DNA from: Candidatus Diapherotrites archaeon CG08_land_8_20_14_0_20_30_16
Lineage (GTDB): Archaea; Iainarchaeota; Iainarchaeia; Iainarchaeales; 0-14-0-20-30-16
DNA length: 16,133 bases
Assembly (NCBI GenBank): GCA_002779075.1
Contig: PEXK01000002.1
Location: 1 to 16,133, forward strand
Reading direction: 5' to 3'
Part shown: piece by piece, positions 12,775-15,291 of the stretch
How the letters are laid out: every line of letters starts with the position of its first letter
Numbering within the stretch: the stretch's first letter is position 1
Notes under the pieces: model-generated
Databases searched by the model: none
Told to the model about the DNA's origin: nothing
The model's input: only the letters and a program-made list of their open reading frames with translations
Translations under genes and position numbers: made by a program

Positions 12775-12912
12775 ATAATTTGGCATAAAAATCTCTCTTT
12801 TTTATGATACTGTTGTACAATTTCGACTTGTTGGGAGAAATTTACAACTGGGCATAATGCATATCTCTTTTTTTCAAAATGGTGAACCCGATCTTTCTTT
12901 CAAAACATAATG

Positions 12913-12920
12913 TTTATATA
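12913..12920 (+). promoter_or_regulatory. Consensus archaeal TATA box TTTATATA positioned for a plus-strand transcript starting about 12941-12943
   Basis: The octamer ends 20 nt before the first base of the GC-rich island. No CDS lies downstream for about 290 nt on the plus strand, and nothing lies downstream on the minus strand. Confidence 0.45.
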
Positions 12921-12940
12921 GTTTTGTGTTACAATTATAT

Positions 12941-13085
12941 GTGTGGGGCGCGAGGTTAGTTGGTGACAACTTGCATGGTTGGCCTTTCGTGGGTTTCTCT
13001 ATGTTGAAGCGGATTTTATCCTTCTGGCTTCGTTTGAGGGGTACATAAGTTGGTAGCTTCAGATGTGCTTTCTCTTGTTCCACAC
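12941..13085. ncRNA. GC-rich structured RNA gene, strand and identity unresolved: novel plus-strand RNA versus highly divergent 5S-rRNA-like RNA on the minus strand
   Basis: This is the only GC-rich island in the window. My count for the plus strand is G44 U54 C26 A21, which is 48% G+C. The ends pair (12941..12955 with 13085..13071), and the interior forms several hairpins, including AGUUG-GUGA-CAACU at 12958..12971. The minus-strand reading of 13068..13006 resembles the loop A, helix II, helix III and loop C region of 5S rRNA. See the findings entry for detail. Confidence 0.6.
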
Positions 13086-13207
13086 TTATATTAAAAATTA
13101 AGTAAAAATAACAAAAATCTTTTTCTTAGAATTATTATAGGCAATTTTTGTGTAATTTTAGTATGTATAACCAAAAAGCTTTTTTAATTATCTCTTTTTT
13201 ATAAAAT

Positions 13208-13846
13208 ATGCTTGAGCAATATAGGTTAGAAAATAAACTGTTGCGTGAAAGATATGAATCATTAGCAAAAGATTATAATGCTCGACTTCCAGATTATTTG
13301 CCACATCACACAAAAGTGTTACAACCATTTGTAGGATTTCTTAACAAGGATTTTGGCCCTGGTGCAAGAGTTATAGATTTAGGTTGTGGTGTTGGTTTAA
13401 ATTCTTGCATATTGAATAAGCATGGCTTTAATGTAACTGGTTTGGATTATTCAAAAAATAGTATTGAACATGCAAAGCAAAACTGTCCCAATACAAAATT
13501 TTTGCATACTGATTTTCTTGATTGGCAGCCAGAAGAAAAATTTCATGGTTTAGTTGCAGGTTCTTTCTTAGACAAATTTCATCCGGAGCTTCTGCCTGAG
13601 GTTTTCGAAAGACTAGACTCTTTGTTGGTTTACAAAGGATATGGTTTAATGTATGTTCCCACTTCTAAAGAAGAAAGTCAAAAAGTGGACGGATCTTATA
13701 ATAAAAAACAAAAATATAATCCTTACACAGCATTGTTAGAAAGAGATAATTGGCTGCAACACATTTCAAAACACTTCAAAGTATTAGAATATTATCCTGG
13801 TTATGGAAAAAGAGATTTCTTTATCTCTACTTTCCAAAAGCGTTAA
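13208..13846 (+). CDS. Class I SAM-dependent methyltransferase
   Basis: Motif I is VIDLGCGVGLNS. A post-I acidic residue follows (VTGLDYS), then a motif IV-like region LVAGSFLD. Confidence 0.85.
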   Translation: MLEQYRLENKLLRERYESLAKDYNARLPDYLPHHTKVLQPFVGFLNKDFGPGARVIDLGCGVGLNSCILNKHGFNVTGLDYSKNSIEHAKQNCPNTKFLHTDFLDWQPEEKFHGLVAGSFLDKFHPELLPEVFERLDSLLVYKGYGLMYVPTSKEESQKVDGSYNKKQKYNPYTALLERDNWLQHISKHFKVLEYYPGYGKRDFFISTFQKR

Positions 13847-14459: not shown

Positions 14460-14903
14460 CTAACTTTTTCTTGTAAATTCCATGTGATTTGTTTTGATTA
14501 TTTTTTTGGCCAATCCAATCATATCATAAACAATAGGATTTTTATCTAGAACTTCTTTGATATCTTCTTTATTTATATTGCCATATTCATGTGCTAACAA
14601 ATTTCTGCGAGATATTAAAAACGCAAAGTCAGTATATGTCTCTTCAGTGATTAATTTATTATCTTTTAATATTGTAAATATTTCAATATATTTATTACTT
14701 GGACCTAATTTTGTTATAAATTTTATATCATCTGCAATGTCTATAGTTGCATTAATTATAGAAAATAATAACATTGCAGAACCATGTAAGCAACTAGCTT
14801 TATTTAATTCTGAATCTTCATCTAAAATCTTGTTAAGTTCTGAAAAAAATCCTTCAATTTCCTCAATTTTTTTAGTTATTCTATCTTTGGCAAGTTCATC
14901 CAT
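14460..14903 (-). CDS. hepT: HEPN-domain (DUF86/HepT-type) toxin
   Basis: The R-x4-6-H motif is present in SRRNLLAHEYG. The protein is about 147 aa and helical. Its start overlaps the upstream MNT gene by 8 nt. Confidence 0.85.
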   Translation of the reverse strand: MDELAKDRITKKIEEIEGFFSELNKILDEDSELNKASCLHGSAMLLFSIINATIDIADDIKFITKLGPSNKYIEIFTILKDNKLITEETYTDFAFLISRRNLLAHEYGNINKEDIKEVLDKNPIVYDMIGLAKKIIKTNHMEFTRKS

Positions 14904-15291
14904 TAATTATCCACTCGTATCTTTTATTTAATATCAATCTTTTATAAAAATCATATTCTCCAATTGTTTTAAACTTTAGTTTGTGTATTTTATAATCATA
15001 TTTTTTTGGCAAATATAATAGTTTTCCTTCAAATAATATGTGATATTGTATATTGGGTGGTAATTTCCAAAAATTGGATGCTTGTACTAAATCTTGATTG
15101 TATTTATAAACATCGTATTTTTCATCTATAGGAATTATACAAATATCAACATCAGATTCCTCTTTTGTTCTTCCTGTTATGTAAGATCCAAATAAATACG
15201 CTGCAACAATATTTTTATCTTTCTTGATTTCTTTTAGGAAATCTTTGAGTTCGGCTTTTGCTTTTGCTTCTGAGAATACAATTTTATACAT
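14896..15291 (-). CDS. mntA: Minimal nucleotidyltransferase (MNT/MntA-type) antitoxin
   Basis: LFGSYITGRTKEESDVDICII matches the GS-x9-10-D-x-D polymerase-beta-type NTase motif. Confidence 0.85.
   Translation of the reverse strand: MYKIVFSEAKAKAELKDFLKEIKKDKNIVAAYLFGSYITGRTKEESDVDICIIPIDEKYDVYKYNQDLVQASNFWKLPPNIQYHILFEGKLLYLPKKYDYKIHKLKFKTIGEYDFYKRLILNKRYEWIING

Follow-up and report, generated by a model that had tools for sequence, protein, structure and literature searches.

Introduction

The Hgc RNAs, non-coding RNAs that compositional screens have picked out as GC-rich islands in the genomes of AT-rich archaea, are a natural point of departure for any element that stands out in the same manner, and several of those held in Rfam (where HgcC, HgcE, HgcF and HgcG are listed) proved to be H/ACA guides. 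The RNA described here resembles them in forming a G+C peak within an AT-rich archaeal genome and in being a stable structured RNA, but the HgcC, HgcE, HgcF and HgcG Rfam models do not match it and guide features are missing from it. Another obvious comparison is 5S rRNA, whose helix II/III and IV/V arms stack end to end in ribosome structures, with their loops far apart. The two are alike in being small independent genes of raised G+C content in an AT-rich genome, in having a terminal helix that closes a (here predicted) three-way junction with two arms, and in lying after the 23S rRNA gene, on its strand, in four of the relative lineages; they differ in that the RNA matches 5S neither in sequence nor in structure on either strand, has no loop C or loop E motifs, is polymorphic in length (145, 200 or 300 nt), is unlinked to rRNA genes in the copy analyzed and seems to have its arms joined by an 11-bp bipartite loop-loop pairing that is incompatible with the extended 5S shape.

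RNase P RNA in its minimal archaeal form (type T) shares with the RNA a terminal helix made of the two ends, long-range helices that form pseudoknots, an entire domain that is present or absent depending on the lineage and a gene that stands by itself, whereas CR-I, CR-IV and CR-V are missing here, the helix order is unmappable, no model matches and the size is much smaller. Purine-type kissing-loop aptamers, and cis-regulatory RNAs at large, likewise show a P1-closed junction with two parallel arms held by loop-loop pairing, a purine-rich core, a position upstream of one gene family and a terminator thereafter; our RNA, however, is about twice the size of the purine-type aptamers, is conserved in its pseudoknot core and not in the junction, has its own promoter as well as an apparent second one for the downstream gene, and is an archaeal (DPANN) RNA with no Rfam family match.

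To our knowledge, covariation-supported RNAs with several pseudoknots are rare, the known ones being mostly ribozymes, riboswitches or “ancient” RNP cores, and very few DPANN-specific RNA classes have been described. DPANN genomes are tiny, and a conserved non-coding gene of 145-300 nt is unlikely to be idle in them. Literature searches on DPANN, Diapherotrites and Iainarchaeum in connection with RNase P, 5S or structured RNA brought nothing on this RNA to light.

The GC-Rich Island and Its Relatives

Positions 12941-13085 of the window (the whole 16,133-nt stretch of Candidatus Diapherotrites DNA that was analyzed) are 145 nt long, with 48.3% G+C and 67.6% G+U, and rank first in G+C among all segments of that length in the 16 kb (mean 29.1%, sd 4.2), which agrees with the 48% island in AT-rich surroundings and the 68% G+U of the plus strand given in an earlier note on this DNA. 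The features of the locus are as follows.

12905-12910 and 12913-12920, plus strand: promoter, an ACATAA element and the TATA box TTTATATA, 21 nt upstream of the first paired base
12941-13085, plus strand: structured RNA, short form (GC island, fold z = -3.0, covariation, leave-one-out covariance-model match)
13120-13124, plus strand: first oligo-T run after the structure, a likely archaeal terminator
13150-13190, plus strand: putative methyltransferase promoter, ATGTATAAC ... AAAAAGCTTTTTTAA, conserved upstream of the ATG in relatives
13208-13846, plus strand: class I SAM-dependent methyltransferase (Pfam Methyltransf_25/23/11), the next gene downstream of the RNA

Homologues were sought on contigs encoding homologues of this methyltransferase and then with a degenerate DNA pattern derived from two conserved blocks, the family sample amounting to 11 distinct sequences, i.e., the window copy and ten from metagenomes and Iainarchaeia MAGs. 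Contigs with an identical methyltransferase carry an identical RNA, and where the methyltransferase homologues are 39-80% identical, a related GC-richer element is found just upstream in all such contigs. The pattern scan of GTDB genomes added two further members (L022 from an uncultured archaeon MAG and L035 from a Candidatus Iainarchaeum MAG), the remaining 31 of the 33 genome-contig matches being bacterial chance matches, and the scan of metagenome contigs returned five matches, all of them copies of variants already known. As far as sampled, the family is confined to Iainarchaeia (Diapherotrites, DPANN).

The sequences fall into two types, the first of which has a TrmB-like (or HEAT-repeat) gene on one side and the methyltransferase on the other and comes in short forms of ~145 nt (the window and L017) and long forms of ~300 nt (L011, L063, L015, L020 and L059), which carry an additional structured domain at the 5' end, while the second (~200 nt) is represented by L018 (whose RNA is identical in L055 and L058), L035, L022 and L060. 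The window copy is evidently the short (145-nt) form of this small RNA family. Accessory domains, as seen in the ~200-nt and ~300-nt forms, have been gained or lost between lineages with the core left untouched; in the 5' domain of the long forms, 11 of the 36 predicted pairs show compensatory changes.

A covariance model (R1), built from the ten other sequences with the window copy left out, matches the window at 12951-13071 on the plus strand only (89.5 bits, E = 2e-16; next best match 12.8 bits) and, over 38 loci, gives a single match (69.9-120 bits) in each of the related ones, with unrelated bacterial loci reaching at most 17 bits. The model is usable for annotating further members of the family.

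Comparative Fold of the RNA

The elements of the fold, as obtained by comparing the 11 variants, are listed below in their order along the window.

12941-12953 / 13073-13085, plus strand: closing helix (duplex -17.9 kcal/mol), homologues having GGG(N)/(N)CCC or GGUAGGUA/UACCUGCC in the corresponding position
12951-12962 / 13021-13032, plus strand: helix e (12 bp), 9-12 of the 12 positions pairing in 11/11 variants whose sequences are completely different
12963-12966, plus strand: unpaired GUGA, invariant in 11/11 variants
12967-12972 (CAACUU) / 13047-13052 (AAGUUG), plus strand: pseudoknot helix d (6 bp), 97% of cells paired
12973-12976 / 13001-13004, plus strand: helix x, closing the variable hairpin H2 (12973-13004), 95.5% paired
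13006-13010 (GAAGC) / 13056-13060 (GCUUC), plus strand: pseudoknot helix a (5 bp), 100% of cells paired
13011-13021, plus strand: hairpin c with the nearly invariant GAUUUUAUC, identical in 10/11 variants (GAUUCUAUC in L060)
13038-13046 / 13063-13071, plus strand: hairpin b (9 bp), 96% paired, compensatory changes in 7 of 9 pairs
13047-13052 (d'), 13053-13055 (GUA), 13056-13060 (a') and 13061-13062 (AG), plus strand: the 16-nt loop of b, with G-N-A and A-G conserved

In the resulting model, the terminal helix closes a three-way junction with two arms, namely e, which encloses a multiloop, and hairpin b. Helices d and a connect two distinct segments of the multiloop within e to the loop of b, and as each of them crosses e and b, and each other, the predicted fold is a double pseudoknot that holds the arms side by side. 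Such a fold differs both from the minimum-free-energy fold and from the sketch in the earlier note. The closing helix of that sketch stands exactly as it was described (15 positions, 12941..12955 / 13085..13071, with 10 Watson-Crick pairs, 4 G-U pairs and 1 mismatch), and so does the base of its second hairpin (12973-13004), which is the conserved helix x (12973-76 / 13001-04), the remainder (H2) being variable. Its GNRA hairpin at 12958-12971, however, although present in the window sequence, has a stem that pairs in only 56% of cells across the 11 homologues, i.e., at the level of shuffles. The 5' strand of this stem (12958-62) belongs to helix e and the 3' strand (12967-71) to helix d; GUGA is, on the evidence of the alignment, an invariant unpaired tetranucleotide and not a tetraloop. 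The double pseudoknot had been missed altogether.

As for the individual helices, the closing duplex compares with -8.1 +/- 2.4 kcal/mol for shuffled tails, and all 12 pairs of helix e are changed on both sides, the register of the latter having been picked by the analyst for best complementarity. Compensatory changes affect 5 of the 6 pairs of helix d, also on the untouched MAFFT alignment (CAACUU/AAGUUG, CAGUUU/AAAUUG, CGACCU/AGGUUG and GGAUAU/AUAUCC being the variants), and 3 of the 5 pairs of helix a, which occurs as GAGAC/GUCUC, GAAGC/GCUUC (the window), GGGGC/GUCCC and GGAAC/GUUCC. Helix x shows an A-U to G-C exchange in L060 and conserved G-U wobbles, and hairpin c is conserved in sequence, not covarying. 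The invariant nucleotides of the family include UGCA and CAGAU; the others (GUGA, GAUUUUAUC, G-N-A, A-G and helix x) flank helices d, a, x and c in the secondary-structure model, and not the three-way junction.

Over the register-adjusted alignment (A2), 93.3% of 418 cells are canonical vs. 74.0% for shuffles, 28 of 38 pairs are changed on both sides and the covariation score is 0.653 vs. 0.264; none of 500 shuffles reached any of these measures, and sliding the 3' partners by 1-3 columns brought the pairing down to 34-45%. Because the register of helix e was the analyst's choice, a control count was made with this helix omitted and on the untouched MAFFT alignment (A3), where 97.3% of the cells are paired and 16 of 27 pairs show double changes (slid controls, 30-51%). 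With 11 sequences, and with many of the double changes separating the two main clades, the independent events are fewer than these cell counts would suggest.

Strand, Promoter and Terminator

The plus strand of the island folds at -49.1 kcal/mol (z = -3.0 vs. dinucleotide shuffles) and the minus strand at -24.3 kcal/mol (z = -1.4). Within the helices of the family, 61 G-U cells are found vs. 3 A-C cells, and the canonical pairing of 93.3% as read on the plus strand becomes 79.4% on the minus strand, where 58 of 390 paired cells are lost. The TATA box that the earlier note had placed at 12913..12920, at the right distance for a start at 12941-12943, is indeed TTTATATA, and every homologue has a matching one (TTTA[AT]A[AT][AT] in 11/11 variants). 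While its distance before GUGA varies with the form (44-50 nt in the short forms, 74-77 nt in type 2 and 195-208 nt in the long forms), the strand of the terminal helix starts 21-22 nt after the 8-nt box (~28-30 nt from its first base) in every form. A T5-T9 run, starting 123-170 nt after GUGA (+157 in the window), is likewise seen in 11/11 variants, in most of them 10-45 nt beyond the end of the structure. No promoter was found on the minus-strand side of the island. The G-U vs. A-C counts, the promoter and the terminator together fix the plus strand.

To judge from the sequences, 12941-13085 is a genuine plus-strand RNA gene, preceded by an archaeal TATA promoter of its own and followed by an oligo-T run. 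The “novel plus-strand RNA” branch of the earlier note has prevailed, given 11 covarying homologues, the G-U statistics, the promoter and terminator on that strand and the silence of Rfam, and we consider it very probable that a plus-strand RNA family is real and absent from Rfam.

Comparison with Known RNA Classes

Rfam 15 (4227 families) gave no match over the whole window at the gathering score, and no 5S, RNase P, SRP or other credible match on either strand of 12800-13250 at E<=10 with permissive filters. RF00001 was silent at E<=10 on both strands of 12800-13250, of L011 7555-7960 and of L058 7085-7600; the Rfam searches covered the short, long and type 2 forms, and what they returned was noise (bxd_2, plant snoRNAs and miRNAs). 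A detectable 5S rRNA is excluded by this lack of an Rfam match on either strand. The cmsearch runs with RF00001 and the full Rfam library, as well as the collection of homologues and the strand-wise covariation check, had been proposed in the earlier note, and the former, run on both strands, spoke against 5S, the latter for the plus-strand fold.

ARAGORN detected no tRNA or tmRNA in the RNA; an intron-containing or split tRNA was considered on account of a D-arm-like start and discarded, there being, by eye, no T arm and no acceptor complement. As to guide RNAs, neither a RUGAUGA/CUGA pair nor a pocket-ACA arrangement could be found, and the RNA has no complementarity of at least 9 nt to the cognate 16S-23S operon of L058 (a length reached by 194 of 200 shuffles); H/ACA, C/D and K-turn readings of GUGA/GNA were dropped for want of proper boxes and rRNA complementarity. 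The RNaseP_arch and RNaseP-T models do not match, and the look-alikes of CR-I (GAGGAAAGUCC) and CR-V (ACAGAA...) differ between clades; mapping e onto P2, and d or a onto P4, was rejected, as neither helix order nor clade conservation fits. The Archaea_SRP model does not match either, and the sole apical hairpin (H2) is variable; in an SRP Alu mapping, the likeness of GUAGUCCCAG.UA to human 7SL was judged to be chance and the helix order misfits. By the tests applied, the RNA is not a 5S rRNA, RNase P RNA, SRP RNA, tRNA or guide RNA. With no Rfam family matching and no description in the literature searched, we rate the family as an RNA class that is new, a housekeeping RNA diverged to an extreme being, in formal terms, an improbable alternative.

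The Adjoining Methyltransferase and the Gene Neighborhood

In every locus for which upstream DNA is available, the methyltransferase gene lies downstream of the RNA, adjacent and co-oriented. Its family is a narrow one (~14 clusters among 5.8 billion proteins), as narrow as that of the RNA, and the NCBI record of the window protein reads “Candidatus Diapherotrites archaeon CG08_land_8_20_14_0_20”. The other neighbors vary: upstream of the RNA, a TrmB or HEAT-repeat gene gives way to 23S rRNA, and downstream of the methyltransferase, a 187-aa ORF gives way to POR genes, the adjacency of the RNA and the methyltransferase having outlasted at least two rearrangements of the surrounding genes. The neighbor genes in the window are archaeal (NMD3, AMMECR1, TrmB-like, NYN and MinD-like), and an exact look-up of the TrmB-like one found it not on record.

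The AlphaFold model of the methyltransferase has a pLDDT of 85.7. Both by sequence and by predicted fold, the protein is like small-molecule enzymes (TehB, NodS, UbiG, ChlM and halide methyltransferases); comparisons with NCBIfam, PDB sequences and Foldseek yielded generic small-molecule class I methyltransferases only, with no likeness to known RNA methyltransferases and no recognizable RNA-binding domain. Between the T-run and the ATG, the element at 13150-13190 shares its extended consensus with the promoter of the RNA, which suggests that the methyltransferase gene may be transcribed separately; the spacing from the RNA to the ATG ranges from ~100 to ~300 nt across loci.

In L055/L058, the order is 16S rRNA, an intron-containing tRNA, 23S rRNA (with a group I intron), the RNA and the methyltransferase, the type 2 RNA being located ~240 nt downstream of the 3' end of 23S rRNA, on the 23S strand and directly upstream of the methyltransferase. 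The RNA directly follows 23S in four lineages (L055/L058, L035, L022 and L060) and is not near rRNA genes in the window, L011, L015, L017, L020, L059 and L063. As to the 5S “instinct” of the earlier note, related genomes do have the RNA in the usual position of 5S, but on the 23S strand. A canonical 5S was not found in the Iainarchaeal DNA analyzed, and as this comes to only ~100 kb, the genomes may well have a normal 5S elsewhere.

Alternative Explanations and a Proposed Role of the RNA

The earlier note had also entertained an aberrant 5S rRNA on the minus strand, the complementary string of which does loosely recall the order of loop A, helix II and loop C; yet RF00001 matches neither strand (E<=10), the minus-strand fold has an unremarkable z of -1.4, the 61 G-U cells of the helices would turn into A-C mismatches and the covariance model recognizes the plus strand only. 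Much the same fate befalls a locus devoid of any RNA, be it a chance GC island or a gene for the 69-aa protein whose ORF covers it (on the minus strand, 12874-13083): the ORF, which had already been deemed implausible, is broken in nearly every homologue whichever frame is read, all frames contain stops in most homologues, none is open throughout the family and the substitutions in the helices are compensatory, and the probability left to these readings is negligible. That the plus-strand RNA would be a functional replacement or an extreme derivative of 5S rRNA, or else an additional lineage-specific RNA of the ribosome or its biogenesis, is a thought invited by its place in the slot after 23S, on the same strand, in four lineages, by the lack of a canonical 5S in the Iainarchaeal DNA analyzed and by a topology of a terminal helix and two arms, as in 5S. 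We hold it to be improbable, however, as RF00001 stays silent for all three forms on both strands at E<=10, loop C and loop E motifs are missing, the two arms are joined in the model by 11 base pairs (d and a), lengths between 145 and 300 nt occur, the RNA is away from rRNA genes in six lineages besides the window and a normal 5S may well sit outside the ~100 kb covered; were it true, the methyltransferase next door would serve specifically in modification or assembly. A drastically reduced housekeeping RNA, either an SRP RNA or an RNase P RNA shrunken beyond the Pyrobaculum type T reduction, would account for the pairing of the 5' and 3' ends in a terminal helix, the long-range pseudoknotted helices, an entire domain that some lineages have and others lack, the independent gene and some weak motif echoes (ACAUAA and CAGAU vs. 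CR-V/CR-IV, GUAGUCCCAG vs. 7SL), but the echoes are not conserved between the two clades, RNaseP_arch, RNaseP-T and Archaea_SRP are silent at E<=10, the succession P1-P2-P3-P4...P2'-P4' is not reproduced by the helices, a length of 145 nt falls well short of every RNase P RNA known to be active and nothing like helix 8 is there for SRP54, all of which makes it very improbable.

A cis-regulatory, riboswitch-like leader, i.e., an aptamer for SAM, SAH or the substrate of the enzyme that would control read-through of the oligo-T run into the methyltransferase gene, deserves to be taken more seriously, though we regard it as unlikely. The RNA is always found immediately upstream of, and co-oriented with, one gene family, a T-run follows it, and the three-way junction, kissing arms and conserved purine-rich core recall known aptamers (the comparison being with the architecture of the purine and TPP riboswitches). 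Speaking against such a leader are the promoter-like element with the consensus of the RNA promoter between terminator and ATG, the RNA-ATG spacing that varies from ~100 to ~300 nt, a three-way junction that is itself not conserved, the coming and going of whole domains (145, 200 and 300 nt), an uncommon trait among aptamers, and the absence of an Rfam riboswitch match.

The best explanation overall, in which we have moderate confidence, is a plus-strand pseudoknotted RNA family that would serve as a trans-acting scaffold linked to the methyltransferase. Working in trans, the RNA may provide a compact and stable scaffold, to whose conserved pseudoknotted core a protein or a small ligand would bind specifically, and the likeliest partner or modifier would be the adjoining lineage-specific SAM-dependent methyltransferase, the one recurrent hint of a partner. 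Taken separately, a methyltransferase-linked trans-acting RNP or substrate is a tentative proposition, somewhat short of an even chance, with its functional part drawn from nothing but the conserved adjacency. Given an enzyme with the appearance of a generic class I methyltransferase for small molecules, a looser reading of the link is called for: it could be regulatory, the RNA could be a substrate, or the link could be merely historical. Three features, namely the pairing with the methyltransferase, the 5S slot after 23S and the modular domains around an invariant core, do lend themselves to testable hypotheses. The position after 23S in four lineages, for its part, would suit a role tied to the ribosome no less than one tied to the methyltransferase.

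Additional 5' Domain of the Long-Form RNAs

The long-form relatives of the RNA gene, recovered from metagenomes and Iainarchaeia genomes, carry an additional structured 5' domain of ~165 nt, which lies between the transcription start and the core at the positions listed here.

Location of the long-form 5' domain
L011, 7588-7755
L063, 131-300
L015, 188-345
L020, 937-1095
L059, 576-730

The strings ACGAAAGGU, GAUGGU and UUUGUGUAAAG are invariant within this domain, and 36 pairs were predicted for it by RNAalifold (11 of them showing compensatory changes), with the 5' AACAGAA having two alternative partners, either the hairpin loop UUCUGUU or the 3' AUCUG; a search of Rfam returned no match to the domain.

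In the window, a long hairpin (GUUGUACAAUUUC...GAAAUUUACAAC, 12805-12875), followed by a T7 run, is located directly past the stop codon of the TrmB-like gene. The start of this hairpin (AUACUGUUGUACAA) is similar to the first hairpin of the relatives' long-form 5' domain, and the structure is possibly a remnant of it; alternatively, it may serve as a terminator of the TrmB-like gene only.

Internal T5 Runs

In the short L017 and the long-form L059, a T5 run lies within the 3' strand of helix e, the 12-bp helix of the core, 69 nt past the invariant GUGA. Because an archaeal polymerase stopping there would produce a truncated RNA in both, termination at these runs appears to be suppressed by structure or context.

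Neighboring Genes and Elements

An element conserved 5' of the methyltransferase gene, ATGTATAAC-N-AAAAGCTTTTTTAA (window 13163-13187), is found at equivalent positions in L011, L015, L017, L020, L059, L063 and L014, and its central palindrome covaries (AAAAGCTTTT, AAGCGAAACGCTT, ATAGCTAT). It could represent a BRE/TATA promoter, a small hairpin or a regulator binding site (the upstream neighbor belongs to the TrmB family). The methyltransferase homologue 3' of the type-2 RNA in L022 (3985-4150) is open for only ~55 codons before stops appear, which may reflect pseudogenization, a frameshift or a chimeric assembly.

Further downstream in the window, adjoining minus-strand genes (14460-15291) encode a 147-aa HepT-like (HEPN) protein and a 131-aa nucleotidyltransferase (MNT), probably a HEPN-MNT toxin-antitoxin pair; L011 lacks it, a glycosyltransferase standing there directly instead.

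In the type-2 organisms, where the RNA follows the 23S rRNA, the rRNA operons are interrupted.

Interrupted rRNA operons
L055, 2572-7604 (L058, 2052-7084)
L022, 1-3296

A group I intron sits in the 23S (94.9 bits), and the match to the spacer tRNA spans 165 nt, thus pointing to a long intron; within the 23S of L022 lies a LAGLIDADG-type ORF (1752-2261).
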